Origin: Amoebidium appalachense
Lineage: Eukaryota; Protista; Ichthyosporea
DNA: 64,000 nt
Assembly (NCBI GenBank): GCA_963693365.1
Contig: CAVNZM010000013.1
Span: 3,562,722-3,626,721 of the forward strand
Direction of reading: 5' to 3'
Part shown: positions 1,942-63,935 of the stretch, piece after piece
Layout of the letters: every line of letters starts with the position of its first letter
Numbering within the stretch: the stretch's first letter is position 1
Notes under the pieces: generated by a model
What the model saw: the letters and a program-made list of their open reading frames with translations, nothing else
Databases searched by the model: none
Told to the model about the DNA's origin: nothing
Position numbers and translations under genes: made by a program

Positions 1942-2824
1942 GTGTACATGAATATCTTATGTTGTAACTGTGCTATCGTGTTCATGTTTGTTGTTCTGTG
2001 TTCCTCTCTTTTTCTCTCTTCTCTTCTTCTCTTCTCTTTCCTCCTTTTCCCTGGTGTTCATATGTGTGATCACTGTTCTTTCTCACTAATATACGTTGAG
2101 TCAATTCGTGTGAAGTAGATGTGTTTTGATTGGAAGAAAAACACATAGGCTACACCATGTACTATTACAGTGTGTCAATAGTTTATTCAACTATGTTTGT
2201 TTTGCGAATTGCCGCGGTCTAACCAATCACTAGACTAGTCATAACGTGTCCCTGCCGTTAACCTCAATAATACTAGTAGGTTAGAAATTAGTGTCAAGGT
2301 TTACAGTTTCTTCGTGACTGTGTTCTTATGCCTTGCCGTGATCTATTGCGAGTGTTGGATCTATTGCTGTAGTGATCAGTCCATTATGATTGGTCTATCC
2401 GATATCTATTCTGATTTCCGACTGGTCGGAAATCACACATAGGTTTGACTTAGTGATTGCAGTTATATAAGCACATCTCAAAATAAATTCAGTTTAGTTG
2501 TGTTTAAACATTGATGTCTGTTCTGTACACTTCTCCGATCGGTTCCGTCTGTGTGTTTGTCTGTGTGTCTGTGGTGTTTTTACACTGCACCACTGCCGTG
2601 TCTCTGCTTCCCCGACATAGTCAGAATACTTATAAAATTTTTCAGTCTCTGCAGGCGCAGGGCAGGACCCCATCAGCTGGAGCAGCCGACCAATAGGATT
2701 AGTATTAGTGTATAGGATACATTTTAGGCGGGACTTAGGAATGCAATAAGTTCGGGCAGATGCCCTGGTAAATATTGGCAAGTTTTGATAGTGTATTCTG
2801 CCAAACGTATATATATATATATAT

Positions 2825-3174
2825 AGGTTTTATTTGTGGAAATTATTGGCATAAATATTTTTCTGGGTAAACACGTAGGATGGGTGTTCGATACCAACAT
2901 AACCATGTAGGCTTCATTTCGTGTTTTAGCAGTTAGCGGTTGGCTGCCCGCACACGGGCACCTATTAGCCAGTCAAAACATCAGATACCACAGATCACTA
3001 GACCGAGTTATGATTGGCTCGGATCAGATTTCACATATCACTAGATCGATTTTTGATTGGCTCAGATCGGTAAGCTTAGGTATATAAGCACGACAGTTTT
3101 TAGCAGATCAGCAAGCTACAAACACATCTTCTGTGTTTAGCATCCACAGCCTTACAGCTATATATTCCTTTTCA
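2825..3174 (+). repeat. Split direct repeat A1 (350 bp)
   Basis: Nearly identical to 13592-13941; related copies start at 29781, 40442, ~42670, ~49522 and, on the minus strand, ~44293. Confidence 0.92.
2990..3090 (+). promoter_or_regulatory. Probable Pol II promoter of the YR retrotransposon
   Basis: Two tandem ~44-bp units each carry GATTGG (reverse CCAAT box), followed by TATATAAG at 3081-3088, ~120 bp upstream of the gag ATG. Conserved in all A copies. Confidence 0.6.
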
Positions 3175-3204
3175 TTCTCCCTATCTTTCCCTACGCCGGT
3201 CAGC

Positions 3205-4374
3205 ATGCCGCCGAAAAAGCGCCAGGCCTCAGCAGCCGCCCCTGCCGCGGCACCTAAGCGCCTGACCCGCAGCGACCTCCGCCACAGGCTGACCAACGCT
3301 CCCGCGGACACTGACGCGCCTCCAGCGGCCCATACCACCACGGACCCGGACCCGCCGGCTACTCTCCCCTCCACTCCTGAAGTCCCCCCTCAGGCCCCGC
3401 CGTCCCCGCAGATGACTTCTCAAGACGCCGTCCTGGCCGCCCTCACCGCCATCAGCACCCAGATGGCTGGCGTCCTGGCTGCTCTCACCAACCGCGACCC
3501 TCCCGCGCCCCCCGCCGCGCCCTCCACACCCGGGGAGGTTTCCCCGGGGCTGCATCTCGGCCCTGACCTAGACCTACCTGCCCTGCCCGCGCCCCCCATC
3601 AGAGGTGAGAACACTGGCGACATTCAGCCGGGCACACTTTCGCTTCCCCCCGCGGATGTGCTGGCAGATTTGCGCGCCAATCGTTTCGTCGACCTGTATA
3701 AGTTCACCCCCGCCGCCCTCCTGGCCCCATCCAAGAAAGGTCAGCATCTGCGCATGGCCGACGACGGCAGCATCGAGACTTTTCGCCAAGACAAACCCGT
3801 TCCCCTGCGTTCACTCGTCATTTGGAGCCAAGCTTGGACCCATTACATGGCCGCCAAGCACCACCTCGGCCTCCCCACGGACAAAGACGTACTTTGGACT
3901 CAGCACATCACTCGCCTCAGCACCCGATACCCGTGGGCCCAGATCCACAACTATGACGTATACGCCCGCACCGTTGCCCACCAGCAGGGTCGGGCTCCGA
4001 TCGAGTGTCCCAACCTGCTCGCCCAACTCCACCAGGATCTCCTCCTGCCACCCACTCTGCTCACCCCGGACGCATGTCAGCGCTGTGGCTTCCCCGACCA
4101 CCCCAGCGCGGCCTGCCCCATGTACCCCAAGCCCGGCTGCGGTCTTGACGGCTTTAAGCCGCCCCACAAGCCCGGCGGGGGTCAAACCCCTAACCGCCCT
4201 GGCCCGCAACCCGGCCCGGCAAAACCGGCCCGACCCGTGGATCTCCCCGCGACGCACTGCAGGAATTTCCACATTAAAGGTCGGTCCTGCGCTAAGCAGC
4301 CCTGCCCCTTCTCCCACGTGTGCCCGCTCTGCTCTGGCACACACCCCCGCAAAGACTGCAAGCACAATGCCTAG
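3205..4374 (+). CDS. Gag-like ORF1 of the YR retrotransposon
   Basis: ATG at 3205 (MPPKKRQ, NLS-like), Pro-rich N-terminus, C-terminal zinc fingers CQRCGFPDHPSAAC (CCHC) and CRNFHIKGRSCAKQPCPFSHVCPLCSGTHPRKDC, as in DIRS/Ngaro ORF1. Confidence 0.85.
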   Translation: MPPKKRQASAAAPAAAPKRLTRSDLRHRLTNAPADTDAPPAAHTTTDPDPPATLPSTPEVPPQAPPSPQMTSQDAVLAALTAISTQMAGVLAALTNRDPPAPPAAPSTPGEVSPGLHLGPDLDLPALPAPPIRGENTGDIQPGTLSLPPADVLADLRANRFVDLYKFTPAALLAPSKKGQHLRMADDGSIETFRQDKPVPLRSLVIWSQAWTHYMAAKHHLGLPTDKDVLWTQHITRLSTRYPWAQIHNYDVYARTVAHQQGRAPIECPNLLAQLHQDLLLPPTLLTPDACQRCGFPDHPSAACPMYPKPGCGLDGFKPPHKPGGGQTPNRPGPQPGPAKPARPVDLPATHCRNFHIKGRSCAKQPCPFSHVCPLCSGTHPRKDCKHNA

Positions 4375-4769
4375 TCTACGCGCACACCCACACACACAGC
4401 TCTAGAACATAGGGGTTAGGAGCTAGGACACACGAGTACAGGGAAACGGAGCTCGGGAGAACGGGCCAATAGGGCTGAGTACAAAATTTCGCAGGCCAAC
4501 TACGGCGCCCGCGCGCGTCAAGAATAAATGTCCCTACACAAAGACGTTTATTCTGGCCACTGCACATAATTTTACTCCCCCCCCATCCCACGAGCCTCCC
4601 CCCCCCCTTACACTCACCTGGCACTCCCTCCCCCCCCCCCCTTCTTCTACCTCTGTGTCCGCCCACACCCCCGCGTGCTCGGGCACATTCCCCTGCACAG
4701 GGCCCCGCTGCCCTCCCTGCCAACCCTCACTTGGGCCCAGCTGCCCTACTCTAACCCCCCGGGGCCCTG

Positions 4770-4815
<46 letters not shown>

Positions 4816-4876
4816 CTGCCGGGATCTCCCCAAGGGTACACCACCCTTGCTAACCACCCCTTCCCCCGAGGCTCAG

Positions 4877-5905
4877 ACCCGGAGGCCCGCCCGCTGCCCC
4901 AGCACCACATTGACACCTCCCGCCTCCGGGAACTGCTGGCCTCCTACCCGGACCAACCATTCGCCGCACAACTCCTCCACGATGTCGAATTCGGCGTCGA
5001 CATCGGCTATCGCGGCCCCTCCACCTCTCGGGTGGGCGCCAACCTACCCACCACCCCGGAGGCAGCTGCCGCTATCACGGTGGATATTGCCAAAGAAGTT
5101 GCCCTCGGCCACCTGCGCGGCCCCCTCTCCCCGGCCCAATTCTTTGACGAATTTCCGGTCCACCGTTCCTCCCCCATCGGCGCCGTTACCAAGAAAGGGA
5201 ACCCCCCCAAGTACCGTCGAATCCACCACCTCTCCTGGCCCCGGGGTAGCAGTGTCAATGACAGCATCACCTACCCCGACGAACTTCAGTACATTCGCGC
5301 CCGGGATGTCACCCAACTCATTCTCGACGCAGGCCCCGGCTGCTACATGGCCGTGGCAGATGTGCAGGCTGCCTTCCGGCACATGCCCATCCGACCGGAA
5401 GACCACCACTTAATGGCATTCAAATGGCAAGGGCATTTTTACGTTGAAACCAGACTGCCCTTCGGCCTGAAATCTAGCCCAGCCATCTGGGAACGGATCG
5501 CGGCCACCCTACAGTGGCTGGCACACCAGCACGGTATTACCCTCATCCGCCACTACGTAGACGACTGGATTATAGTCGCCCCCACACAAGAGCAGTGCCA
5601 ACGTCACCTATCCACCTTCCTGCAACTCTGCCGAGAGCTGCACATTGCCATCTCCGAAGACAAGATGCAGGGCCCGGCTACCAGTGTCGTCTTCATCGGT
5701 ATCGAATTCGACTCCATCACCATGGAGGCACGAATCCCGGCTTCCAAGCTCTCGGACCTACTCGACCTCACTTCCCACCCAAAGCCCACCATCACCATTC
5801 GGGACCTCCAGTCCCTCCTCGGCAAACTCACCTGGTGTGCCCAGCTGGTTCCCCCCGGGAGGGCCTTCTCCCAGCGCCTATGGGCCCTTCTCCGGACCCA
5901 CCCAC
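4877..5905 (+). CDS. Reverse transcriptase (DIRS/Ngaro type), 5' part, cut by the copia insertion
   Basis: Motifs SSPIGAVTKK, YRRIHHLS, ADVQAAFRH, LPFGLKSSP, HYVDDW, FIGIEFDS, LQSLLGKL. Frame is open from 4675 but the first in-frame ATG is at 5347; the start given is the inferred splice acceptor. Confidence 0.9.
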
Positions 5906-6670
5906 TGTTGGAGTACACTGGTACTCCCGGCTAGCAATGTCTGTTAGAGAAAGTTTCTGAGCAATTGAATAACTGTTTCAACACTCACTCGAGTGCATAG
6001 AGCTTTTGTTTACGGTCATATTCATATATGGTAGTTATATGTTTGAGCCAAAACTGTACCAATGACGAGCTTCACTAGCAACGTGCTAATTGTGCTCATT
6101 AATTAATATTCCCGGTTCAGATGATGTCATGTCTATATTTGCCACAGGATTCTATTCTTAGAGTGGTAGTGTGCTTTATTCCCGGATATTCTCAGAATAT
6201 TTTTAGTTGTGTGAAGCAAGATTTACGTTTAACTGCAATTGGTGTGTTAAACACGTTTATTTGTGTGCTTTAGTGCAAGTTAACTAGCCACTCAACGTGC
6301 ACAGTTAACTTTTATATCTTTAACGACTTGTTTTCATTGTGCTCTCTTTTCGGCCATGCTGTACATGGCCCACCACCAGGGTGCACACGAGGCCACCATG
6401 AGGTGGCCAACGACTATATAAAGCAGTGCCTCCCATGTCACAAACATGGGAAGCAGAACGTTTGATTTACACTTTTCTACTGTCGTTTCCAGTGCACAAA
6501 ACACATAGACTAGCTACCCATCATACACGACACTATGTCTGACAACTTACAGTTGCAGCAACTAGTCCAACTACTGGAGCAGAGGTTGGCCTCACAAGAT
6601 GCAATCATTTCTGACTTACAGAAGGAACAACGTGCACTAGAACTAGCTTCTATGAACACAATGTCCAACA
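5906..6670 (+). repeat. 5' LTR of copia element
   Basis: TGTTGG...CCAACA termini, TATATAAA at ~6415; only one C/T difference from the 3' LTR noticed by eye (6514 vs 11625). Confidence 0.95.
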
Positions 6671-9600
6671 GGGTTATGGGCCCCTCACGTAATGATTCCA
6701 TCAAGTTCAAGGTCGACATCCCTCTCTTCACTGGCATTGATAATGATTCAGGCACGGACTACCACACATGGGCCGAAACCATGTATGTCCAGCTTTCTGG
6801 TGCTGGTCTTCTCCACACCATCGCGCCCAGTACGGAGCACCCGGCTACCCGTGAACAGGTCGACACTGCCCGTTCCTACCTGTGGCAAGCACTCTCGGTT
6901 GACGTGCGTTGTATCCTAGGGTTAACACGCACCACCACACCTGCGGAGATATGGTCGGCCCTATCTGCCCACTACCTGGAGCAATCTGAGGCCAATCAGT
7001 ACGACCTTATCGGGCTGTACATGAATTCTACGCCTGAACCTACGGACACCGCGACGAAATACGCCATGAAACTCCGCGGCTACGTGCGGCGCCTGGCCGA
7101 TTACGGCACACAAATTGGTGATGCTCAAGTGCTGACCAAGCTCACCAACGACCTCGGCAAGGTGCCTTACTACGAAATGCCTGTAATTGCCTACAAGATG
7201 ACACCCAAGCCTACCGTGATGGGCCTCCTCCAACAGCTACGGGCATATGAGACCAGCCACCCACGTGCACGTGTGACTACCAGCTCCGGGCCGGCCGCCT
7301 TCACCACACGGGCTCCTCAACCTGTCATCTGCCACGGCTGCGGCAAACCAGGTCACATCAAGTCTCAGTGCCCCAACGGCAACGGCCAACACAGCAACTC
7401 TGGCAACAACCGTGCCAGCACCTACCCCAAGGGTTCCTGCGTCAACCACCCACTGTCTACCAGTCACACTACCGCCATGTGCAAGGGGGGCAACCGTGCC
7501 AACGGCCGCAAACCTAAGGGTGGTCCCCTCCCGCCTGGGTCCTGCATCAACCACCCTGCCTCTACTACCCACACTACGGCACAGTGCAAGGGGGGGCTGC
7601 CGCTCCCCGGGCTTTCCTCATGTCTAGCAACGACTGTGGCACCAACAAGGTGCTCCTCGACTCTGGAGCCACTGACCATGTGTGCCCCCGGCCCGATGTG
7701 TTCGTCAACATGCGTGCGGCGCCTTACTCCACGGTCCAAGTAGCCGACAAGGGTGCATGTGCAGTGCTTGGGGTGGGCGACGTGTTCTTTTCCAGCACCA
7801 TCGACGGCGTTACTGCGGTGCATCAGCTGACGGATGTACTCTACGTGCCCTCCATCCCCGACACTCTCATCAGTGTGTTCACGGCATCTACCAACGGCGT
7901 TTTACCCCGCTTTGACACCCGCGGCGGCGTTAAGTTGTGCTACGGCGATCAAATTCTGGCCACCGGCTCGGCTGTCGGCACCAAGCTGTACCACATGGCG
8001 GTGTCTCTTCTGCGCACGGACACAACCCCGGACGCCCAAACCACCACTGCTCCGCGTATCCTCAAGGTTACTGCCGACCTCAACACGTGGCACTACCGTC
8101 TGGGCCATGCTGGCATTGACGCTGTACGCTCGGTCATCAAGTCTGCAGGCCTGTTGGTGGGTGGCGGTGCCAAGTCTCCGGGTGTGTGTGAGCCCTGTGC
8201 CCTCGGCAAAGCCCACCGTGTTGCCTTCTCCGAATCAACCAGCCAAGCTCCCCGGGTCCTAGCCAAGGTTCACAGCGACATCAGCGGCCCCTTCCCTCCC
8301 GCGATCGGTGGTGCTCAGTACTTGGCGACGTTCCACGACGACTTCACCGGCCACACCACGGCCGTGCCCCTCGTCAAGAAGTCGGACACACTGGCTGCAT
8401 ATGTGACGTACCACAAGGCGGCGGTTACCCAACACGGTGTTCCCATGCAGGTGTTTCAGTCCGACGGGGGGGCGAGTACATGGGCACGGCCTTCGGGGAC
8501 TACAACCGTGAGCACGGCATTCGCCATCAGATCACTACCACCGGCTCTCCTCAACAGAATGGGACTGCCGAACGACTGAACCGGACCCTCCTCGACATGG
8601 TTCGGGCACTCCTGCAGCTGTCCGGCCTTCCGGTGGGATTCTGGGCCGAGGCAGCTGTGACCGCGGCTTTTATACGCAACATGCTCCCGTCGCGAGCCAC
8701 CGGCAGCCAATCGTCTCCCGCCCTGCTGTGGACCGGCATTCCTCCCGACTACAGCCGGCTCCGTGTCTGGGGCTCTCCCTGCTACGTCCATCAACAGGAT
8801 ACACCGAAACTGGCGCCTCGTGCCGTCAAGGGCATCTTCGTGGGCTACCCTCCTAACATCAAGGGCTACAAGGTCTGGATTCCAGCAGCACACAAGATGA
8901 CCGTCAGCCGTGACGTGCAGTTCGACGAGGCTGCTATTCTGCACCCCCTCCGTGATGTCCCATCTGATTGGTCGACCGCACCGGCAATTCATCATTTTTT
9001 GGAGTCATCTGATTCGTCAAATCAGCCAGCCAATCACATCGTCCGGAATGATCAGCAATCTGATTCGTCTCGTCTGTCAGCCAATGGGACAGCGCCGAGT
9101 GATCAATTGGACATTCCGATCCTGCCCGAGCCTGCACATCGGCTCCCCCGGACGACCCGTAGTGGCGCTGTGTACAACGACCCACGTCGAGGCCCGACTG
9201 CCAACGTGGCTGCTGCTACGGCCCCCCTTGCCTCCCAGGCTACGGCTCCTGCATCAACACCCATCAAGGCTTCCACCATTGTTGTCCCCAAGACTGTCCG
9301 GGCTGCACTCAAGAGTCCCCAGCGTCTGAAATGGGAGGAGGCTGCACACCGTGAGCTCAAGGCCCTGGAAGACAACGGCACCTTCACCCTTGTGCCCCGT
9401 CCAGAGGATGGCTCCACTGTCATTCCGGTCGGCTGGGTCTTTACGGTCAAGCAGGACAACGTCGGCAACGTCACTGCTTTCAAGGCCCGGCTTGTGGCCC
9501 GGGGCAACTACCAGCAGCCTGGCCAGGACTATTTCGTCACCGAGTCACCTGTGGCTGCGCTGGCTACCATCCGGCTGGTTTTGGCTACCTCCGTGGCCCA

Positions 9601-10831
9601 AGGTCTGCCTCTGCGCCACATCGACGTCAACACAGCATTCCTCAACGGCACCGTCAACGAGACCATCTACATTGAGCAGCCCCCTGGCTTCGTCAACCCC
9701 TCGGCCCCCCATGCTGTCGGCTTGCTCCACAAGGCGCTCTACGGCCTAAAACAGGCACCGCGCCAGTGGTATGAGGCCCTCCGTGACCATCTCCTCGACC
9801 AAGGCTTCATTGTGAGTGCTGCTGACCCGTGCCTGTTCATCAAGAATGCCGGGACCCCAACGTTTATTGCCCTTGCTGCCTACGTGGATGACTTCACCGT
9901 GACGGCCGCCACTGATGCGCTCATCGACGATTTTTTCACCAAGCTGGATGCTCGTTTCTCTGCCAAGGACCTGGGTCGTCCTACCCTGCTCATCGGGCAC
10001 ACTCTTACCTGGCTGGAGGACGGGTCTCTGCGTCTGGGCCATCGTCAACACATCATCGACTTGGCTGCCCGTTTTCGTCTCACCCACATGTCCGGCACCA
10101 AGACCCCCATCGTCCCGGGCCAGGCCAGTGAAAGCAACAAGACCCCAGCCCACAGCAAGAAGGAGGACTATGCCAGCCTGGTCGGTGCCCTGCTGTGGAT
10201 TGCGCGTACCACCCGCCCCGACATTTCCCAGGCTCTGGGAGTCCTTACTCGACACATTCATGCGCCCACCGTCACCCACTGGACTATGGCTACCAGAGTT
10301 GTAAGCTACCTGCTGGCCACCATCGACCTGGGTATTGTCTACCGTCCCGGCCCCCCCACCCTTGTTGGCTACTCCGACTCCGACTACGCCGAGGACCGCG
10401 ACACCCGGCGCTCCACCACGGGCTATGTCTTCTTCATCAACTCCTCCCCTGTGTCCTGGGTGTCTCGGCTCCAGTCCATCACCACCCACAGCTCCACTGA
10501 GGCTGAATTTGTGGCCATGTCTGCTGCTACGAACGAGGCCATATGGCTCAACTATGTGATGGACGACCTGGGCCTTAATCCTATCGATGAGCCCACCCCG
10601 GTGCCCATCCATGGGGACAATGAGTCTGCCCGGGCCCTGCTGGACACCCTGGGGGTTAAGCCCAAGACCAAGCACATCGACGTCCGCTACTGCTCCGTCA
10701 AGGAACATCACCTGCTGGGCAACATCACTGTGGTCCCGGTGGCTTCTGCTGACAACAAGGCCGACATGTTCACCAAGGCCCTGTCTGCCTCTTTCTTCAC
10801 CAAGGCCGTGGGGATGCTCAACATGTGCTGA
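6535..10831 (+). CDS. Copia gag-pol polyprotein, with two single-G frameshifts at G7 runs (7590-7596, 8466-8472)
   Basis: CCHC knuckle CHGCGKPGHIKSQC; protease LLDSGATDH; GAG-pre-integrase WHYRLGH...CEPC; integrase HSDISGP, SDGG(G)EY, PQQNGTAER; RT KARLVARG, LYGLKQAPR, YVDD; RNase H YSDSDYA, SSTEAE, KHIDVRY. Confidence 0.92.
6672..6683 (+). other. Primer-binding site GGTTATGGGCCC (half-molecule initiator tRNA-Met type)
   Basis: Directly follows the LTR; matches the internal tRNAiMet-complementary PBS of Drosophila copia-type (Hemivirus) elements. Confidence 0.85.
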
Positions 10832-11016
10832 GCACCCGTCATCAACCAACTGCGCCCTCATACTTCAGGGGGGGGAGAGAGTTGCATCCGACTGTGCAAC
10901 TACGTGTACCATACTAAAATTGAGTAGGGGAATCTTTATTGTCTGTATTTTGTGCACCTGAAGCACTCGAGCTCAGTTGCATTAATTCATACCACAATTA
11001 TCCAATTGAGTAGGGG

Positions 11017-11781
11017 TGTTGGAGTACACTGGTACTCCCGGCTAGCAATGTCTGTTAGAGAAAGTTTCTGAGCAATTGAATAACTGTTTCAACACTCACT
11101 CGAGTGCATAGAGCTTTTGTTTACGGTCATATTCATATATGGTAGTTATATGTTTGAGCCAAAACTGTACCAATGACGAGCTTCACTAGCAACGTGCTAA
11201 TTGTGCTCATTAATTAATATTCCCGGTTCAGATGATGTCATGTCTATATTTGCCACAGGATTCTATTCTTAGAGTGGTAGTGTGCTTTATTCCCGGATAT
11301 TCTCAGAATATTTTTAGTTGTGTGAAGCAAGATTTACGTTTAACTGCAATTGGTGTGTTAAACACGTTTATTTGTGTGCTTTAGTGCAAGTTAACTAGCC
11401 ACTCAACGTGCACAGTTAACTTTTATATCTTTAACGACTTGTTTTCATTGTGCTCTCTTTTCGGCCATGCTGTACATGGCCCACCACCAGGGTGCACACG
11501 AGGCCACCATGAGGTGGCCAACGACTATATAAAGCAGTGCCTCCCATGTCACAAACATGGGAAGCAGAACGTTTGATTTACACTTTTCTACTGTCGTTTC
11601 CAGTGCACAAAACACATAGACTAGTTACCCATCATACACGACACTATGTCTGACAACTTACAGTTGCAGCAACTAGTCCAACTACTGGAGCAGAGGTTGG
11701 CCTCACAAGATGCAATCATTTCTGACTTACAGAAGGAACAACGTGCACTAGAACTAGCTTCTATGAACACAATGTCCAACA
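11017..11781 (+). repeat. 3' LTR of copia element
   Basis: Direct repeat of 5906-6670, preceded by the polypurine tract GAGTAGGGG (11008-11016). Confidence 0.95.
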
Positions 11782-11786
11782 CCCAC

Positions 11787-12376
11787 ACCTTGCCGGCCAC
11801 CACCACATACGACTGACTGCTGCCGCCCGGGCCGACATAGCCGAATGGCACCAGTTCCTCACATCATGGAATGGGGTGCACCTCATCACACCCCCCACAT
11901 ACACCACCCTGGCCACTGATGCTGCCGGATCGGTGGGTCTAGGAGGCCACTGGCTCGACCAATGGTTCTTCATGCCCTGGTCCCCCTCCACCCAAGCCCT
12001 CTATGCTCATGAGGGTAAACTCGGTTCTTCCGTCATTGACCTCCTGGCCATCGCAGCCGCCGTGGCCCTCTGGGCCCCCTCCTGGTCCACCCACCATGTC
12101 CGTATTTTATGCGACAACACGGGTGCTGTGTCTGACCTACACTCCCGGTCTTCCCCCCACCCCGTGATGGCCAAACTTATTCGGTTCATCACCCGCATGG
12201 AAATGCAATACCAATTTACGTTACAGGCATCCTACCTACCAGGACCCCTCAACCATCTGGCCGATGCCATTTCTCGTAACCAACTTCCCCGGGCCCGACG
12301 ACTCCGACCTTCCCTGCAACCGGAGCCCTGCCCCTTCCCCTCCTGGGTCCACGAGTTCCTATCCCTTCCCTTGGGC

Positions 12377-12379
<3 letters not shown>
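11787..12379 (+). CDS. RT connection/RNase H of the YR retrotransposon (continuation after the copia element)
   Basis: TDAAGSVGLGG, IDLLAI, CDNTGAV, YLPGPLNHLADAISR; contiguous with RT in the uninterrupted copy 47698-49347. Confidence 0.9.
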
Positions 12380-12411
<32 letters not shown>

Positions 12412-12413
12412 AG

Positions 12414-13475
12414 ATCTCCCGTTCCGGAGCAACGCTGGCAGATTGGCCCCCCACTTTGCTCCGGCCGAGCTGCTTCGAGCCACCACTACCCTGCAGGAAT
12501 GCCAGGCCCTGAGTCTCAACCTCGACTCTCGGGCCTTTTACTCCCGGGTGCAAAAAGTGTTCATCGATTTCTGTGTGGCATCTCGGCTGCAATCCTCCTC
12601 CGGGTCCTCCCTCCCGGCCTCCCCACACACCGTGCAACTTTTTCTCGCCTGGTGTGCCCAACCAGGGGTACAGGCCTCTTCCTTAACCGGCTACAATTCG
12701 GCCATCACCAGGCTCCACCTCGACATGGGCCTCCCTGCTCCCTACCCCCACGACAAGTCTCTGGCCTGGTTCCTACGGGGGGTGGGCCGATGGCAGCTTT
12801 CTCACAACATCCGACCCCGCTCATCCACCAGGGAACCCCCTCCTCCCCTCCCACCTCCGCCTACTCCATGGCCAGTGCCCCACCAAGGCCTCCTCGGCCA
12901 ATCTCCGGCTATGGACGGCCCTCATCGTCGGTTTCTGTGGTCTCCTCCGTTCAGGGGAATTTACCTCCAAGACCCTGACTTCTTTCGACCCGTCCCGTCA
13001 CGTTAAACGGAAGGACGTGACCTTCAGCTACACCCCCACCGGTACTTTGTCCCATGCCACCCTCCACCTGCCAACCTCTAAGACGGATGTATAGGCCCGA
13101 GGTGTCAACGTCACCCTAGCTGCCCTGCCCCTCACCCACTTCTCCCCAGCCCATCTCCTCCGGCAGTTCCTGGATACAACGTCCGGTCAACCCGACGACC
13201 CCCTCTTCAGTCTCGGTGGCATCCCCTACACCAAGAGTGCTTTCTCTGCCGATTTCCGTGCCCTCCTCTCCCGGGCAGGCCTCTCACCCTCCCGGTTTGC
13301 CGGACACAGCCTCCGCATCGGGGGGGCCACAGCACTGGCTGAGGCCGGGGTCGACGACTCCCGGATCAAACAACTCGGCAGGTGGTCCTCCGACTGCTTC
13401 CTGATCTATACCCGACTTCGTCCGGCCTCCATTGCTGCCACCACCACACGTGTATTCGCCTCTATTCTTAAGTGA
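12414..13475 (+). pseudogene. Tyrosine recombinase of copy 1, with +1 frameshift in a C-run near 12840
   Basis: Near-identical to the intact ORF 41523-42554; the extra C in GAACCCCC may be a homopolymer error. Confidence 0.8.
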
Positions 13476-13503
13476 AACCTTTGGAGCAAGCATACTGCTC
13501 TCG

Positions 13504-14160
13504 TGCCGTGGTTTACAACCATTGCAGGTTCACTTTCGTCCAAGGGGATGTCCCCCTAGAGGCAACACACCTCCCGGAGTAGTTTTCATAGAGGTTTTAT
13601 TTGTGGAAATTATTGACATAAATATTTTTCTGGGTAAACACGTAGGATGGGTGTTCGATACCAACATAACCATGTAGGCTTCATTTCGTGTTTTAGCAGT
13701 TAGCGGTTGGCTGCCCGCACACGGGCACCTATTAGCCAGTCAAAACATCAGATACCACAGATCACTAGACCGAGTTATGATTGGCTCGGATCAGATTTCA
13801 CATATCACTAGATCGATTTTTGATTGGCTCAGATCGGTAGGCTTAGGTATATAAGCACGACAGTTTTTAGCAGATCAGCAAGCTACAAACACATCTTCTG
13901 TGTTTAGCATCCACAGCCTTACAGCTATATATTCCTTTTCACCCACCCACCTACACCCACACACAACCCCCATTGATCCACACATACGTGCTGTTTTTTC
14001 ACGGGGGGAAGACTTCCCCCGTTTTTTGGGCACATGGACCTCACGGATCAATAAATTGATGACTGGGGGCTTGCCGTGGTTTACAACCATTGCAGGTTCA
14101 CTTTCGTCCAAGGGGATGTCCCCCTAGAGGCAACACACGTCCCGGAGTAGTTTTCATAGA
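13504..14160 (+). repeat. 3' terminal B1-A2-spacer-B2 block
   Basis: 89-bp B repeats at 13504-13592 and 14072-14160 contain hairpin GGGGA-TG-TCCCC; AATAAA at 14050-14055 lies just before B2. Confidence 0.92.
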
Positions 14161-14949
14161 TATATATATATATATATATTGATGAACAAGAAGGAGTAGA
14201 GGGGGGGGGGGGAAATAGTATGAATTATAGACTTAGACTCCGCGATGCCACTAGGGGGAGGGAGAGGGGTGAGACAAAGATATGTGTATTATAGTGAGCC
14301 GATAGACTTAGCTCGTGCAGGCGCACGATAGACTAAGTCTTCATTAGATCGGTATATGCATGGAATGTGGCATCGTGGGGGGGCCGGGTGACGATGATCT
14401 TTGAGGGCACGGCCTTGATGGCCGCAGTTGTGACTTAGCTTGGATCCGTTAGGATCTCAGGCTGCCCGTCGGAGCCTGGCCTAGAATAAACTTTACGGTT
14501 TTTTCGTACACGTTCGTTCCTTTCCGTGTGTGTACACTTAGAAGAGTGCCGCGTCTCCTAATACATACACGTTAGGATACGACAAGCTACACCCCCTAAG
14601 TAAATACGGTTTAGGGTTTAAAATATTAACGTTTCTTGGCCGTAGGGCCCATTATCTTATCCCCCCTCCCCCTCCCCCCCCTCCCCCTCCCCCCTCCCCT
14701 CCCCCCCCCCCCCCTCCCCCCCCTCCTCCCCCCCCCCCCCCCCCCCCCCCCCCCCGGGCCCCCCCCCTCCCACCGCCCGCCCGCCCGTCCGCCCCCACCC
14801 GCCCGCCCGCCCGCCCGCCCGCCTGCTTGCCCCGGCTGCCCGCCCCGGTCATTTGGGTCCTTCTTCTGGGCTGCGGGTGTTTTTTTTTTTTTTTTTGGGG
14901 GGGGGGGGGGGGGAGACACACACACACCCGGAGACACGGAGACACACAG

Positions 14950-17173: not shown

Positions 17174-18111
17174 TGTTGCAGGCCAAAGTGTCGTCCCTGC
17201 AGGCCAAAGTGTCGTCATCTCTAATTAAAATCCAGGTCGTCAAATTTGGCTGGTCTAGGGGGAATATCGGGCAGGCCAAAATGCACCCCCCCCCCCCCCC
17301 CCCTCCCCCGCCTACTACCCTGGGTGACAAGGGGGGTCAGAGGGTTTGTATGACGTGGTGGGAGAAACTGTGTGTGCGTAATAAACAATCATTGTCGTGA
17401 CCTTAGCTTATGACATGTGTTGGGAAAAAAATCATGTCTACTGTTAACAGTTTTTTATCCTCTTGTGTTCGGGGGGGGACCAGAGGGGGGGGGGGGGGGT
17501 TGTGGTATAATCATTAAAGTGTCCTGAGCTTGTAGCTTTGTGTGTTGGTCGAAAAGAAACCATGGCCACTGACAGCAGGATTTTACCAACTCGTTGCAAA
17601 TGGTGTAGTATCATGTGGTTTGTATGTATTTATCGCCATTGCATTTACAAGTTACTAGAAGCCATAATACACATTATAATATAGCCGTAATCATCTTGTA
17701 TTCTTAATCATTCTTACGTCACAATGTTAAATTGGGTTCACATAGACTAAGTACCGCTCACATGGAATAAAACCCCCCCGCCGGCGGACAGCATATATAT
17801 TTTGTATGTTTTAGTTGTCACCACGTTAAAGAACCATACACAGCAGCCAATTCAATGTTATATTCGTAAAAATCTTCTATGCATAATTTTCAATCTTGAT
17901 CTTATACTTATACACCTACATGAAATAAATCCAGACAGCATGCAACCAGCACATTCATGGTGTATCTAAATACGAGAAGGCATTATGTCCTTCATTCAAT
18001 TCAAACGATAATGGCATGTTGGCAGCAAAAAATAACAAAAAAGCCCCCCCCCAAAAAAAAAACAAAAAAAAAAAACTCCGATATCCACAAGGCCGTCTAC
18101 AATACATCCAC
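17174..18111 (+). repeat. Truncated copy of the TGTTGCAGGCC-terminated repeat unit
   Basis: Matches ~20214-21180 and, inverted, ~27835-28820; broken at ~18111 by the copia fragment. Confidence 0.85.
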
Positions 18112-20180
18112 ACATCAGGATGGGTTACGGGTTTAGGATGTCCCAGACTGGTTTGAGACGGGAAAAAGATGCCGGGAGATGTTTGCTGATGTGGCTCAAG
18201 AGTAGAGAAGTACTTCTTTACTGGGCACACGTGGACGTTTGAAGCCGAGTCCCAGCAGGGGTCCATGGGTAGGGAGGCCGTGGTGGACACGAGGGCAAAA
18301 TGCACCTCTTTTCCAGACTTGGTGTTGGCACGGTGACGACGGGCAATTGAGCAGCCAGGTTTGTCACACTGTGTGACATGATGGTCTTCGTGACAGTAGG
18401 CACAGTCGAGGGAGCCAGTGGTCTTGGCTCGGGGTGGCTGGGAATGACGGTTACCCCCTTTACGTGGGGGGTAGGGTGACCGGGAACGATAGCCGGGGGA
18501 ACGGGACCCGGAGTAATCACGGTCAACTGAGGGGGATCGATCGGTGGAACGACCGCGGGGGTGACGGGAGACGGAGCTGTCACGTCGGGGGATCCGGTGT
18601 CTGAGGTCGTCCTTGGTGAGGACACGGCTTTGCAGGGCACGTGCTGTTCGGACGGTGGAGGAGGACCCGGACCCAGAGTCGATGAGACCTTCACGGATCT
18701 CTGCAGCTCGGATGTCACTGATTAGACGGTTGTAGGTCTCGTAGTTGATGGTACGACGGAAGTAGTCGGCAATCATGGCCTGGATGTCGGTACAAACTAA
18801 CTTACGGTTCTTCTTGAGGTGGATGAAGAAGTTATCAACCATAGTCTTGTGAGGGATGGGCTCTTCGAGGATGTGCAGGGTAGTGCACAGACGGCGTGCC
18901 ATGGTGAGGTAGGCCGTGACGGTCTTGAAGTCTTTGAGTTCAAGCTCATGGTAGTCGAGGAGGATTTGACGAGCACGATCTTCACGTTCAGCCGCATAGG
19001 TCATACGGAGGTTGTGGAAAGCTTGGGCAGGTGACACATCATCGTGGATTTGACCAGAGTTATACAGCTCATCATTGGAGACGAGTTGAGTAAACATCTG
19101 TTCAAGGAAGTTGGAAGCCTCGGTGTAGGCCTCCTCAGTGTCATAGCCGTGCCACTCGTTCTCGTCGGAAGGGTCGACCCACTCGGGGGCCTTGATGACG
19201 GGCACTAACTTGGCCGCGGTGGTAGTACGTAGGTACCGGAAGATGACGGGTTCCCACTCATAATAGGTGAGACGTTTGCCGGACTTCTTGTCCGTGGTGT
19301 CATCCCCTTTCCAGGGGGTGAGGTTGAGATACGCAGGTTTCTCCGACATGGTGATCAATCAGTCAGATGATGCGTGAGAGAGGAATCAGATCGGTATTCA
19401 AATTTGAATATTTTCGATTGCAGCGAGAGTATGTGTTGCGAGGGCGTGCGAAAATGGGCCCATAACCTGTTGTTTTGTACGGGTCTAAGGGAGCAGAGTG
19501 CACAGAGGTGTCATGTAAAACACGACTAACACATTAATGAGAGGGCAATCGGAGTTGTTCACGAGACATTGAAAGATTCAAACAACAACTGATTCTTTAT
19601 TGTGCTCTCGGTTCCTTTTGTACTTGCGACTTATCACCTTATCACAACTAAAGAGGGAGAACCAATCGGTTCTATCAGAAGATAGAAAAACACATTCCGA
19701 CAGAGCATACGCATTCCAACTTCCGATTAAACTAAAGTTTAGAAACTCTTACTTAAATAAATTAAGTAATTATACATCTAGTCACTATTAACTCACATAT
19801 ATATTTATGTTCGTCTCTATAAAGAAACTTATTAAAATACATATATTTCCTAATAGTCGACACTCTCAAAGTGAAGACACTTTGCAATAAACCGAATTCC
19901 ATATATATCTATTGTCCAATCACAACACACATATATTAATAGACAGGAATGCACAACACAATCTACAGATGTACTCGCTCGCGACTATTGGCGAGCCATC
20001 CTTTTGAGAACAAAACTAAGCCATTTTGAAATAAAGGAAAGACAACGAGTGAGGCTAGCCAATCATGCTACCTCTCAGATAAACAGAGGAGAGCAAACAG
20101 AAATAAAAATACAATAAGTTCTTATCAGGCAAGAGAGGCAGGTGTGCACAGATCTACAGATATCTGTGCCCACAGAAACA
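18112..20180 (-). mobile_element. 5' fragment of a second Ty1/copia family (LTR, PBS, gag, start of protease)
   Basis: Minus strand reads ...CAACA (LTR end at 19468) then PBS GGTTATGGGCCC (19467-19456). The outer LTR boundary near 20180 is uncertain. Confidence 0.8.
18200..19349 (-). pseudogene. Copia gag plus N-terminal protease fragment
   Basis: ATG at 19349; YYEWEP gag N-terminus, knuckle CAYCHEDHHVTQC, protease-like CWDSASNVHVC, then truncated. Confidence 0.8.
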
Positions 20181-20213
20181 AGGGAGAGAGAGATACGGGG
20201 GGGGGGGGGGGGG

Positions 20214-21102
20214 TGTTGCAGGCCAAAGTGTCGTCCAGGCCAAAGTGTCGTCATCTCTAATTAAAATCCAGGTCGTCAAATTTGACTGGTCTAGGGGGAA
20301 TATCGGGCAGGCCAAAATGCCCCCCCCCCCCCCCCCACTACCCTGTGTGACATGGGGGGGTCAGTGGGTTTGTATGACGTGGTGGGAGAAACTGTGTGTG
20401 CGTAATAAACAATCGTTGTCGTGACCTTAGCTTATGACATGTGTTGGGAAAAAAATCATGCCTACTGTTACCAGTTTTTTATCCGCTCTTGGTGCAAATG
20501 ATGTGTTCGGGGGGGGGACCAGAGGGGGGGGGGGGGGGGGGGTTTGTGGTATAATCATTAAAGTGTCCTGAGCTTGTAGCTTTGTGTGTTGGTCGAAAAG
20601 AAATCATGGCCACTGACAGCAGGATTTTACCAACTCGTTGCAAATGGTGTAGTATCATGTGGTTTGTATGTATTTATCGCCATTGCATTTACAAGTTACA
20701 GAATCCATAACTTACCATTATAATATAGTCGTAATCATCTTGTATTCTTAATCATTCTTACGTCACAATGTTAAATTGGGTTCACATGCTAAGTACCGCT
20801 CACATGGAATAAAACCTCGCCGCCGGCGGACAGCATATATATTTTGTATGTTTTAGTTTTAGTTGTCACTACGTTAAAGAACCGTAGTACACAGCAGCCA
20901 ATTCAATGTTATATTCGTAAATATCTTCTATGCATATTATTAATTTTCAATCTTGATCCTATACTTATACACCTACATGAAATAAATCCAGACAGCATGC
21001 AACCAGCACATTCATGGTGTATTTAAATATGAGCAGGCATTATGTCCTTCATTTCAGTTCAAACGATAATGGCATGTTGGCAGCAAAAAAAAACAAAAAA
21101 GC

Positions 21103-21141
<39 letters not shown>

Positions 21142-22140
21142 ACTCCGATATCCACAAGGTCGTCTACACTACATCCACAGTTGACTTTGCATACGTCAGT
21201 TTGCGGGAGCCCACGCCTACCAGTGGTTCCTGGGCGGGCACATACACCATGAAGTTGAGATGCACATCCTTAATGCGTGCCCAATTCAACTTAACATATA
21301 ATGGGCACCAGCCTTCGCACTCGCCACCTTCCCGAGACATTTGGACAGAGACATTGGTAGGTCCCGTGTTGCTCTCTCATAGCTCAGTGTCTGGTTTTTC
21401 CGTGGTCATACCGAAACGTTTGCAGTGGAGATGATATGGTCTCCCGTTTTTCCATGTGAATGAGGGTGCCACACCGAAAAACTGACCTGGTTTGTGAAGA
21501 CCAATGTAGGCAAGATGGTATTGGCGCCCCATAAAGTTTACGCAATTCATGACATGAACAGGCGGCACGGATTGCACTGACATGTGGACGAAGAGAATTC
21601 TAGGAAGTATTAAAACGTTGCCCCGCACCGTACCCTTGAAATTGCACGTTGTGCAAACCGAGGTTGGGCTTTGAAATTCCCTGCCATATTCAGTGCAGTC
21701 GCCATCGAAGAAGTGGGTACCCGCTATGTTTTCTATGGGATTGACAATGTAAATCTCCTTGTGGTCCATCCTTTCACGGCGACGTCGGGTGCGAAGCTCG
21801 GCATCGATGGAACACAACACACGCGTACACACGCCAGTGCATTTAACGCATGGTAGCGGTTATGATTGTCACGTGAGGGGGTACCACGTTGTCTCGGAAT
21901 AGCGGACGACTAGACCCATCCAGCGGGACACCCGTGAGGTAATACGAACCGCTAATGTCACATTGAAGCGCGTCAAACAACTTGTCCGTTGAACTTATGT
22001 CCCCAATCCTGTATCGTGTTACCTTCCACACCCGTGCCAGTCGATGAGCAATGGCCCGGATATTTGCTGTATGCTTCTCGCGGTGCTTTAAGGCAGCAAT
22101 CATCCGGTCCCAAACGTCCAGTCCGGTTGGCTTAAGATGT
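20214..22140 (-). repeat. Left arm of ~1.9-kb inverted duplication, carrying a decayed protease copy
   Basis: Reverse complement of 26871-28820; its protease frame has a frameshift (~21845), a premature stop (21377), and PGHF>PGQF and CDG>CKR changes. Confidence 0.85.
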
Positions 22141-24059: not shown

Positions 24060-24336
24060 ATCCGGAATATCAAACCCCCCAAGCGAATATAATATTCGCT
24101 CGGATCCTGATTAATAATATCCAACCATTCGATCCGAGCGAATATTATATTTGCTTATACGAGCGAATATTATATTCGCTTGGGGGTTGTACTAATCAGG
24201 ATGCGAGCGAATATAATATTTGCTCGGATCCTGATTATCCAACCCATATATATATATATATTTGCTCGGATCCTGATTATCCAACCCCCAAGCGAATATA
24301 ATATTCGCTCGGATCCTGATTATCCAACCCCCAAGC

Positions 24337-24386
<50 letters not shown>

Positions 24387-24628
24387 TTGCTCGGATCCTG
24401 GTTATCCAACCCCCAAGCGAATATAATATTCGCTCGGATCCATATATATATATGTATATATATTTGCTCGGATCCTGGTTATCCAACCCCCAAGCGAATA
24501 TAATATTCGCTCGGATCCTGATTATCCAACCCCCAAGCGAATATAATATTCGCTCGGATCCTGAGTATCCAACCCCAAAGCGGAAATAATATTCGCTCGC
24601 ATCCTAATTATCCATCCGCCCAGGTGAA

Positions 24629-24665
<37 letters not shown>

Positions 24666-24976
24666 CTCGGATCCTGATTATCCAACCCCCAAGCGAATAT
24701 AATATTCGCTCGGATCCTGATTATCCAACCCCCAAGCGAATATAATATTCGCTCGGATCCTGAGTATCCAACCCCAAAGCGGATATAAGATTCGCTCGCA
24801 TCCTAATTATCCATCCGCCCAGGTGAATAAATTAAAAAAAAATAAAAAATAAAAAAAAAATGCTCGGATCCTGATTATCCAATCCCCAAGCGAATATAAT
24901 ATTTGCTCGGAACCTGAGTATCCAACCCCCAAGCGAATATAACATTCGCTCGCATCCTGATTATCCATCCCCCCAG

Positions 24977-25011
<35 letters not shown>

Positions 25012-25349
25012 CTCGGATCCTGATTATCCAACCCCCAAGCGAATATAAATTCGCTCGGATCCTGAGTATCCAACCCCCAAGCGAATATAACATTCGCTCG
25101 CATCCTGATTATCCATCCCCCCAGGCGAATATAATAAATAAAAACTAAAAAAAATAAAAATGCTCGGATCCTGATTATTCAACCCCCAAGCGAATATAAT
25201 ATTCGCTCGGATCCTGAGTATCCAACCCCCAAGTGAACATAATATTCGCTCGCATCCTGATTATCCATCCCCCCAGGCGAATATAATATTCGCTCGCATC
25301 CTGATTATCCATCCCCCCAGGCGAATATAAAAAAAAAAAATAATAATAA

Positions 25350-25388
<39 letters not shown>

Positions 25389-25469
25389 ATTTGCTCGGAT
25401 CCTGATTATCCAACCCCCAAGCGAATATAATAATCGCTCGCATCCTGATTATCCATCCCCCCAGGCGAA

Positions 25470-25508
<39 letters not shown>

Positions 25509-25908
25509 GGATCCTGATTATCCAACCCCCAAGCGAATATAACATTCGCTCGCATCCTGATTATCCATCCCCCCAGGCGAATATAATAAATAAAAAATAA
25601 AAAAAATAAAAATGCTCGGATCCTGATTATTCAACCCCCAAGCGAATATAATATTCGCTCGGATCCTGAGTATCCAACCCCCAAGCGAACGTAATATTCG
25701 CTCGCATCCTGATTATCCATCCCCCCAGGCGAATATAATATTCGCTCGCATCCTGATTATCCATCCCCCCAGGCGAATATAAAAATAAAAAAAATAATAA
25801 TAATAAATAAATAAATAAATAAATAAATAAATTTGCTCGGATCCTGATTATCCAACCCCCAAGCGAATATAATAATCGCTCGCATCCTGATTATCCATCC
25901 CCCCAGGC

Positions 25909-25943
<35 letters not shown>

Positions 25944-26326
25944 TCGGATCCTGATTATCCAACCCCCAAGCGAATATAATATTCGCTCGGATCCTGAGTA
26001 TCCAACCCCCAGGCGAATATAATATTCGCTCGCATCCTGATTATCCATCCCCCCAGGCGAATAAAAAAAAAAAAAAAAAAAAAAAAAATCGCCCGCATCC
26101 TGATTATCCATCCCCCCAGGCGAATATAATATTCGCTCGCATCCTGATTATCCATCCCCCCAGGCGAAAACCCTAAATAAAATAAAAAGAAAAGAAAAAA
26201 ATATTTGCTCGGATCCTGATTATCCAACCAACATGTTAACCCCCAAGAGAATATTATATTTGCTCGGAACCTGAGTATCCAACCCCCAGGCGAATATAAT
26301 ATTCGCTTGCATCCTGATTATCCATC
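24060..26326. repeat. 43-bp palindromic minisatellite interrupted by poly-A, (TA)n and (TAAA)n tracts
   Basis: Unit GCTCGGATCCTGATTATCCAACCCCCAAGCGAATATAATATTC and variant GCTCGCATCC...CATCCCCCCAGG; contains palindrome AGCGAATAT-A-ATATTCGCT. Confidence 0.92.
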
Positions 26327-26480: not shown

Positions 26481-27795
26481 ATGGCACAACCACCCCGTAA
26501 GCGTGCCAAGGTGACACTGGAGCCCGAGGTAACTGACTCAACGTCGTATACACCCGAAGTGGACCCACCAGTGTCGCCGGTCCCATCAACCAGTGATTGC
26601 AACCCTTGCCCCACTGTGCCCACAATCCCCGTCTCTCTCCGGTCAAAATGGCCCAGGAATGTCAGTGAGTCTGTGTTTACACATTATGTACTGCAACAGC
26701 GCAGACCCAATTTATGACGTCACCCCCGTGCCGATGGATGCTTTCTCATTCAACCGCAACGACACCTTTGGTTTCCGTCCAAGATTTTCATGGGAAATGA
26801 ATTTCTGTTTCATCATCACCGCATTGGACGGATTAAACTGTGGGCTGATAAAATCCAACGTGCCACCCGTACATCTTAAGCCAACCGGACTGGACGTTTG
26901 GGACCGGATGATTGCTGCCTTAAAGCACCGCGAGAAGCATACAGCAAATATCCGGGCCATTGCACATCGTCTGGCACGGGTGTGGAAGGTAACACGATTC
27001 AGGATTGGGGACATAAATTCAACGGACAAGTTGTTTGATGCGCTTCAATGTGACATTAGCGGTTCGGATTACCTCACGGGTGTCCCGCTGGATGGATCTA
27101 GTCGTCCGCTATTCCGAGACAACGTGGTACCCCCTCACGTAACAATCATAACCGCTACATGCGTTAAATGCACTTGCGTGTGTACGCGTGTGTTGTGTTC
27201 CATCGATGCCGAGCTTCGCACCCGACGTCGCCGTGAAAGGATGGACCACAAGGAGATTTACATTGTCAATCCCATAGAAAACATAGCGGGTACCCATTTC
27301 TTCGATGGAGACTGCACTGAATATGGCAGGGAATTTCAAAGCCCAACCTCGGTTTGCACAACGTGCAATTTCAAGGGTACGGTGCGGGGCAACGTTTTAA
27401 TACTTCCTAGAATTCTCTTCGTCCACATGTCAGTGCAATCCTTGCCGCCTGTTCATGTCATGAATTGCGTAAACTTTATGGGGCGCCAATACCATCTTGC
27501 CTACATTGGTCTTCACAAACCAGGTCACTTTTTCGGTGTGGCACCCGCATTCACGTGGAAAAATGGGAGGCCATATCATCTCCACTGCGACGGTTTCGGA
27601 ATGACCACTGAAAAACCAGACACTGAGCTATGGGAGAGCAACACGGGACCTACCAATGTCTCTGTCCAAATGTCTCGGGAAGGTGGCGAATGCGAAGGCT
27701 GGTGCCCATTATATGTTAAGTTGAATTGGGCACGCATTAAGGATGTGCATCTCAACTTCCAGTGGTGTATGTGCCCGCCCAGGAACCACTGGTAG
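26481..27795 (+). CDS. Putative USP-like (papain-fold) cysteine protease
   Basis: Cys box-like FSWEMNFCFIITAL, Cys pairs CVKC and CTTC, LPRILF, His box-like YHLAYIGLHKPGHFF, then HCDG. A possible first exon from ATG 26481 (PPRKRAK NLS) joins in frame via a 40-nt GT-AG intron (26665-26704, tentative). Confidence 0.55.
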
Positions 27796-28820
27796 GCGTG
27801 GGCTCCCGCAAACTGACGTATGCAAAGTCAACTGTGGATGTAGTGTAGACGACCTTGTGGATATCGGTGTTTTTTTTTTTTTTTTTTGGGCTTTTTTGTT
27901 TTTTTTTGCAGCCAACATGCCATTATCGTTTGAACTGGAATGAAGGACTTAATGCCTGCTCGTATTTAAATACACCATGAATGTGCTGGTTGCATGCTGT
28001 CTGGGTTTATTTCATGTAGGTGTATAAGTATAAGATCAAGATTGAAAATTGTGCCGCATGGAAGATATTTACGAATATAACATGAATAATTGGCTGCTGT
28101 GTATGGTTCTTTAACGTAGTGACAACTAAAACATACAAAATATATATGCTGTCCGCCGGCGGGGGGCCCGGGGTTTTATTCCATGTGAGCGGTACCTAGT
28201 CTATGTAAACCCACTTTAACATTGTGATGTAAGAATGATTAAGAATACAAGATGATTGCGACTAAATCATAATGGTGTATTATGGCTTCTGACTTGAAGG
28301 TAAATGCAATGGCATGATAGTGACATACAAACCACTCATTTGCAACGAGTTGGTAAAATCCTGCTATCACTGGCAGTGGCCATGACATTTTTTCGACCAA
28401 CACACAAAGCAACAAGCTCAGGACACCGTGACCATAATGATTATACCACAACCCCTCCCCCTCCCCCCCCCCCCCCCCCCCTGGTCCCCCCCGAATACAT
28501 CATTTGCACCAAGATGATAAAAAACTGGTAACAGTAGACATGATCTTTTTCCGGCCAAAACATGTCATAAGCTGAGGTCACGACAATGATTGTTTATACC
28601 CCCCCCCCTCCCCCCCCCCCCCCCCCCCCCCCGCACACACTGTGTTTCTCCCACCACGTCATACAAACCCTCTGACCCCCCTGTCACCCAGGGTAGTAGT
28701 AGGGGGGGGGGGTGCATTTTGGCCTGCCCGATATTCCCCCTAGACCAGTCAAATTTGACGACCTGGATTTTAATTAGAGATGACGACACTTTGGCCTGGA
28801 CGACACTTTGGCCTGCAACA
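26871..28820 (+). repeat. Right arm of the inverted duplication
   Basis: Ends in GGCCTGCAACA (28820) followed by poly-G and (AG)n; inverted match to 20214-22140. Confidence 0.85.
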
Positions 28821-41459: not shown

Positions 41460-41491
<32 letters not shown>

Positions 41492-51253: not shown

Positions 51254-63791
<12,538 letters not shown>

Positions 63792-63935
63792 CTGGTGGAA
63801 AAAAACAATGCCCCGTGTGAATACTGGGAAAAAAAACAAGACATCGAAACGAAGAAATGAACATGTGGAAGTGTCACTTATTTGAGATGTAAGGGCAGAT
63901 ACAAGAGCAAACAAGCGTTACCCTTTATCATGACA

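Follow-up and report, generated by a model that had tools for sequence, protein, structure and literature searches.

How does a retrotransposon translate its enzymes when neither of them has a usable start codon? The question is posed by an Ngaro-type element within a stretch of 64,000 nucleotides (nt) from the ichthyosporean Amoebidium appalachense (contig CAVNZM010000013.1, positions 3,562,722 to 3,626,721). This whole stretch is called the window below, and positions are counted from its first letter. The element spans 2821-14160 on the plus strand and encodes, all on that strand, a gag-like protein, a reverse transcriptase-RNase H (RT-RH), and a tyrosine recombinase (YR). The first in-frame ATG of RT lies at 5347 and that of YR at 12725, each inside the domain. 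An original prediction, made from the sequence of the window, held that both enzymes are expressed by alternative splicing from one donor in gag. According to the present analysis, the element likely derives three proteins from one transcript, with both predicted splices starting at a single phase-1 donor in gag. The splice from Gag to YR (3604>12414) is predicted with high confidence, and the splice from Gag to RT (3604>4877), for which the evidence comes from the window, is quite probable. The argument turns on the following features, where copy 1 is the element itself and copies 2 to 5 are partial copies elsewhere in the window.

3205..4374, plus strand: gag-like open reading frame (ORF) of 389 amino acids (aa) with C-terminal Cys/His fingers, ATG at 3205
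3602..3610, plus strand: predicted 5' splice donor GAG/GTGAGA, cut at 3604/3605, phase 1 after codon 133
4375..4876, plus strand: non-coding gag-RT spacer with stops in all three frames, AATAAA at 4523, a second CTAAC at 4751, and poly-C tracts
4850..4876, plus strand: predicted RT branch point CTAAC (4850-4854) and acceptor CAG, 24 nt apart, phase 1
4877..5905, plus strand: RT (5' part of RT-RNase H), PF00078, no ATG of its own
11787..12379, plus strand: remaining, 3' part of RT-RNase H, closed by TAA and free of a methyltransferase domain; copy 5 has the intact counterpart
12376..12413, plus strand: predicted YR branch point CTAAC (12376-12380, overlapping the RH stop), poly-C, and acceptor CAG, phase 1; the same in copy 3
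12414..13475, plus strand: tyrosine recombinase, PF00589, no ATG of its own; frame broken in copy 1

The gag-like ORF has no Pfam match, but a profile of the gag core, derived from related elements, recognizes it (E 1.2e-12); Pfam identifies RT (PF00078, E 4.9e-19) and YR (PF00589). The predicted donor, AG/GTGAGA in phase 1, is confirmed and is the only GTRAG within the 4514-nt sense body of the element. It is kept in copy 2 as CAG/GTGAGA, also as originally described. Nine sequencing runs are available, as contigs only and none on record as RNA, and six of them were compared with the element (X1, X2, X3, and X8 over 2830-5905; X1, X9, X3, and X4 over 11787-14071). A change of G to C at 3602 is the sole letter in the contigs of all three runs that cover that position (X1-X3), and the donor is retained in them.

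Cutting at the donor gives a first exon of 400 nt (133 codons plus one nt), and both joins translate in frame, which bears out the claim that donor and acceptors share phase 1. The stops between gag and RT and the lack of a usable ATG in either enzyme are equally as described, and so is the arrangement before YR, with CTAAC lying over the RH stop and followed by poly-C and a CAG at 12413. Two acceptors had been proposed for RT. The CAG at 4876 stands: it is 10 codons upstream of the RT domain, its distance from CTAAC is host-like, and it is retained in all three copies that cover it (1, 4, and 5). The one at 4870 is a GAG and is unlikely, because host introns here use only CAG. Overlooked earlier were another candidate, formed by CTAAC at 4751, poly-C, and AAG/GAG at 4834, and the AATAAA at 4523.

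The standard for host introns comes from the 3' part of the AROM gene, rebuilt as one open frame over 15 introns, with three exons confirmed by Pfam. All 15 acceptors are CAG. It had been said that host introns in the window place the same CTAAC about 20 nt before the acceptor; this is true of the four sites named (21-24 nt) and only of those four among the 15. Two more introns have a distant CTAAC plus a C or CA tract, and long C tracts occur in some. The rebuilt part (51254-63798, minus strand) comprises 16 exons, with one GC-AG intron after 60171 and branch points that lie up to 160 nt or so from the acceptor; at about 53250-53490, the start of one exon recurs in several tandem near-copies.

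Might such signals arise by chance? Only two CTAAC..YAG sites exist in the sense body, one before RT and the other before YR. Their number is ordinary (1.7 expected). The chance of their placing and phase is about 2e-4 with a strict branch motif and 4e-3 with a loose one, both figures being post hoc.

Relatives offer a more demanding comparison. Searching metagenomes with an RT alignment yielded 80 loci, which form 44 clusters and share 30-41% identity with the RT of the window. Seven of the 44 clusters were dropped for want of an RNase H end, two of 36 loci for want of a YR start, and four of 35 because the RT-RH frame was not intact. A single RT query found no relatives in metagenomes, and the alignment found none in viral contigs or prokaryote genomes. 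Protein searches gave no relative above 53% identity, so the window family itself is not represented. In the tree of relatives (RT-RH), the window sequence forms a long, compositionally odd branch, with a best identity of 36%.

Among YAGs in the YR frame and at most 135 nt from the domain, the first is in phase 1 in 33 of 34 metagenomic elements (P 2e-10); as a control, YAGs inside YR are in phase 1 in 47% of cases. There is no in-frame Met for YR in 15 of the 34. In most relatives YR overlaps the end of RH, and the acceptor then falls inside the RNase H end, within the motif A-D-x-x-S-R-x-Q. The motif is written GCT GAY ... TCN CGN ... CAG and thereby spells CTGAY, pyrimidines, and CAG. The pertinent codons are nearly invariant: CAG in 20 of 20 (9.6 expected) and GCT in 21 of 25 (7.2 expected). 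To control for kinship, 100 conserved columns of RT-RH from 16 families (median identity 42%) were ranked by codon fixation. Within their classes, which have medians of 0.6, 0.4, and 0.38, the motif codons for Q (16/16), A (14/15), S, and R came first. In nine families with YR apart from RH, the motif is relaxed (GCT in 2 of 7, Q mostly lost), and eight of these nine place a phase-1 YAG 20-32 nt upstream of the domain, in most cases behind a T-rich tract. The constraint therefore moves with the acceptor. Seven of the nine lie in one branch of the tree, so few independent events are involved. A gap of 841 nt between L037 and L077 was considered as an intron and rejected; it starts with GTGAG, has no AG end, and is a microhomology deletion.

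The donor side was approached by a test of the best-scoring donor, which was weak (16 of 18 in phase 1 against 11 expected, with 12 of 18 in the RT control) and is superseded by a test of the protein-homologous gag site. In the latter, each of the 19 clusters covering the site is represented by a single locus (L028, with CGT, for L021/L028, the decayed L021 having CCT; L075 for L074/L075). A phase-1 xGT is present in 17 of the 19 families (6.4 expected), and the Glu codon of the site is GAG in 16 of 16 (6.9 expected), giving GTGAGT in phase 1. The residue at the site swaps between Gly and Arg while GT stays.

Proteins with the expected junction also exist. A database search with a related gag N-terminus returned 26 proteins, three of which (P0150, P0158, and P0169; 90, 54, and 44% identical to the query) are Gag-YR fusions joined exactly as in locus L002 spliced in silico. 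P0150 starts in the contiguous leader frame and ends frameshifted and so resembles an ORF call on contiguous DNA; from its protein sequence, it looks like a retrotransposed spliced RNA. The YR splice is strongly supported, because it is conserved in distant families and matched by these three exact-junction fusions in a related group, and it is very likely and appears to hold across the group. Conservation across related families, proposed earlier as a check, holds for the gag donor and the YR acceptor and fails, in the relatives obtained, for the RT acceptor.

A number of observations weigh against splicing as the means of expression, or against parts of the case for it. The families are related, so the P values overstate independence. 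The first YAG of L054 is in phase 0, and four relatives (L005, L013, L017, and L079) have a Met at the start of the YR domain. At the gag site, L042 and L080 are without GT, and L075 is without GAG. The window donor and the site conserved in relatives do not coincide: the former is about 25 codons further upstream and must therefore be shifted or separate. Considered by itself, its score is matched by 8% of synonymous shuffles. The three fusion proteins, which are known as proteins only, may come from an intron-aware gene model, and a second gag profile search, covering other gag types, found no Gag-YR fusion among 64 proteins. Gag-RT fusions numbered none of 26 in the first search (such fusions exceed its 791-aa limit), and none was clear among the 64 of the second. 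Across 21 aligned related ORFs, RT and the end of gag overlap, RT being in the +1 frame, and the alignment has no column with a conserved acceptor; eight further loci, spacer-type or nearer, have no clear counterpart of the RT acceptor. In the window, YR shares its frame with the RH stop in the two copies retaining it (1 and 3, with poly-C of 32 and 29), so readthrough of that stop is formally open locally. Finally, neither junction has been seen in RNA of the organism. In the contigs of the six runs, neither the donor nor an acceptor coincides with a joint or with any of the loose ends listed (all but four), and this weighs neither way, because X1 may be DNA and covers neither acceptor, and reads are cut at poly-C.

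Perhaps only YR is spliced, and RT-RH is translated through near-cognate (CUG) initiation, re-initiation, or a transcript started in the spacer, the RT acceptor being a chance or minor site. This is unlikely, though it deserves serious attention: the relatives have no conserved RT acceptor, CTG codons lie in frame at 4816 and 4894, and the chance of a phase-matched acceptor near one given domain is 0.015-0.06. Yet the contexts of both CTG codons are weak, the spacer's sole ATG (4528) opens a frame that ends after 13 codons, and both slippery-type heptamers are downstream of the gag stop. When copies 1 and 5 are aligned, the spacer differs by 9 indels over 477 nt (a count possibly raised by homopolymer errors), against one 3-nt, in-frame indel in 1619 nt of RT-RH. 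Also, the two closest RT relatives, P0001 and P0002, share 89% identity starting about 8 residues ahead of the domain and cannot be aligned further upstream, a pattern that fits a non-coding upstream region without proving an RT splice. Splicing of RT is preferred here because RT has no ATG and no overlap to shift into, and because it follows a non-coding spacer ending in a host-like CTAAC-24 nt-CAG in phase, the same in every copy covering it. Judged by these sequences, the RT splice is probable, and its signals occur, among the families examined, only in that of the window. Of the claim that both enzymes arise by alternative splicing, the YR half has gained from conservation and the three fusions, while the RT half fits locally and finds no conservation in relatives.

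Some relatives may have other solutions for RT. In L047, L054, and L060, the gag-RT spacer ends A-rich and then TTTAG, shortly before an RT with its own ATG; the TTTAG is possibly an acceptor in a non-coding leader, in the style of foamy viruses. In L024 and L078, RT is in the same frame after the gag stop, with no Met before the domain, making these candidates for readthrough or for other acceptors.

Recoding is the published proposal for YR. Poulter and Butler (2015), as quoted in PMC13003380, deem its translation in Ngaro elements probably due to a programmed frameshift, and fungal Ngaro elements are described in a passage of PMC3783388 as having YR in the same frame or shifted. Applied here, recoding would produce an RT-RH-YR polyprotein by readthrough of the RH UAA and, in relatives, by a -1 frameshift. 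The same-frame position of YR in copies 1 and 3 would suit it, but no slippery heptamer was found near the RH end of the window element, and the protein sequence of P0027, the closest YR relative (53%), suggests that it overlaps the end of the P0001 RH in a different frame. In the nine relatives with YR apart from RH, all three relative frames occur, so recoding cannot serve them. Moreover, exact Gag-YR fusions exist, and recoding leaves RT without a start. It is therefore very unlikely. Still less credible is the notion that a decayed, C-rich element has lost its true starts and shows these signals by chance, for although all five window copies are broken or deleted and two CTAAC acceptors are about the number expected, the copies are only 2-4% apart in their coding regions and have the signals in common, the intact RT-RH (copy 5) and YR (copy 3) frames also lack an ATG, and the same logic is conserved in distant families.

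Predicted splicing from gag could operate as follows. One promoter in the repeat A1 would drive all RNA forms. Unspliced RNA would serve as genome and as messenger for Gag, with a short gag RNA possibly ending at the AATAAA at 4523. Joining 3604 to 12414 would give Gag(1-133)-YR of about 490 aa, and joining 3604 to 4877 would give Gag(1-133)-RT-RH of about 670 aa. The shared basic N-terminus of Gag might bring both enzymes to the particle or the nucleus. For Ngaro elements as a group, it seems rather probable that the recombinase is a spliced Gag-YR fusion, with signals hidden in gag and RNase H coding sequence, overturning the frameshift model, and that the window family adds RT to this scheme.

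The element is Ngaro-type by literature definitions of structure. In the passages cited, Ngaro elements have gag, RT-RH, and YR on one strand, split direct repeats, and no methyltransferase (PMC13465315, PMC4157794, PMC8547959, PMC3783388, bioRxiv 10.1101/2021.08.05.455354), and their ORFs are described there as overlapping or frame-shifted. All three ORFs are present on one strand in the window, and the repeats follow the order A1 ... B1, A2, B2:

2821..3174, plus strand: split direct repeat A1, 99% identical to 13588-13941
13504..13592, plus strand: split direct repeat B1
13588..13941, plus strand: split direct repeat A2, which pairs with A1
14072..14160, plus strand: split direct repeat B2, with AATAAA at 14050 just upstream

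The full RT-RH frame of copy 5, which stops about 33 codons past the last RH motif, has no Pfam match to a methyltransferase after RNase H, and on this the Ngaro-like assignment depends. One trait typical of Ngaro elements, though not universal, is absent: YR does not begin within the RH end in the -1 frame but follows the RH stop in the same frame. DIRS-like elements would have inverted terminal repeats, an internal complementary region, and a methyltransferase, whereas the repeats here are direct; PAT-like elements share the split direct repeats and have the methyltransferase domain, missing here. Within A1, TATATAA at 3081-3087 is likely the promoter.

Stretches of (TA)n flank the element on both sides (2808-2826 and 14160-14180), as if it had inserted into a TA microsatellite. 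In runs X3 and X4, other insertion sites are revealed by contigs with loose ends at repeat B. Contig depth over the A/B repeats (13504-13999; X1, X3, and X4) greatly exceeds that over the body (in X1 by as much as about 100-fold); with loose ends that join A to B early, it hints at many solo or short non-autonomous A-B units.

The copies, at approximate coordinates, and an insertion into copy 1 are these:

5906..11781, plus strand: Ty1/copia long terminal repeat (LTR) element inserted in RT-RH, with 765-nt LTRs and a 5-nt target duplication; not part of the Ngaro element
~29774-30625: partial copy 2
40442-43230: partial copy 3
43728-46215, minus strand: partial copy 4
46214-50096: partial copy 5

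The copia insert, with domains Retrotran_gag_2, rve, and RVT_2 (Pfam), is young: its LTRs are 99.9% identical. Its gag and pol are in different frames, and a duplicate of the 3' LTR takes in the start of the gag frame. Contigs of runs X1 and X3 cross the site without it. Copy 1 is interrupted by this insert; the open YR frame is that of copy 3 (ending at 42554), and the intact RT-RH frame is that of copy 5 (47729-49347). Copies 4 and 5 lie head to head. Both have internal deletions or rearrangements, most of them at microhomologies, and one deletion in copy 4, 4978>12275, recurs in runs X3 and X4. A gap in copy 4 at 12316-12413 ends exactly at the YR acceptor and was considered as a splice trace. 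It was rejected, its 5' end being a poor GC donor, and is further ruled out as support by an X4 contig that has copy 4's other deletion and continues to 12367.

Elsewhere in the window are a long ORF with no Pfam match at 17955-19358 (minus strand), gag-like by eye with a Cys/His finger, and another with no Pfam match at 26533-27795, in an arm of a long inverted repeat pair (~20200-22140 and 26870-28820). A complex 43-nt-based repeat array with A tails occupies 24206-26229, and a 183-nt tandem array of 12 copies occupies 36413-38637.

How ORFs lacking an ATG are translated in tyrosine-recombinase retrotransposons is an open question, and the frameshift model in print is untested. If the recombinase is indeed made by splicing, then the real protein carries the N-terminus of Gag, which bears on annotation and on expression for biochemistry. 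It would also bear on the link between ORF1 and choice of integration site reported in a passage of PMC8547959. The element would, like retroviruses, have to protect its unspliced genome RNA.

Goodwin and Poulter are said to have described, in 2004, spliceosomal introns in some YR retrotransposons; that work, or Repbase, may anticipate part of what is proposed here. In the passages of the literature searched (including PMC7192593, PMC6681497, PMC3266345, and bioRxiv 10.1101/2022.06.16.496473), no splice from gag to YR or from gag to RT was found for the DIRS/Ngaro group.

As described in the sources cited above, Ngaro-like elements such as DIRS-53_XT of Xenopus, the Ngaros of Cafeteria, and those of fungal clades have in common with the window element ORFs on one strand, the order A1-B1-A2-B2, and the lack of a methyltransferase. 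The window element differs in its non-overlapping ORFs and its 500-nt non-coding gag-RT spacer. Foamy viruses, according to the passage cited (PMC6669543), likewise obtain RT from a spliced subgenomic RNA and not by frameshift or readthrough. Their Pol, however, is independent of Gag, whereas both enzymes of the window element would carry the Gag N-terminus, and its integrating enzyme would be a tyrosine recombinase on an mRNA of its own. In the Ty1/Copia element EVD of Arabidopsis, splicing and premature termination produce a Gag-only RNA, as described in part of PMC5580714, so that host splicing and the choice of 3' end set the ratio of Gag to enzyme, as they might here. The assignment would be the reverse: in EVD the spliced RNA gives Gag and the unspliced RNA the enzymes, while in the window element unspliced RNA would give Gag and spliced RNAs the enzymes.

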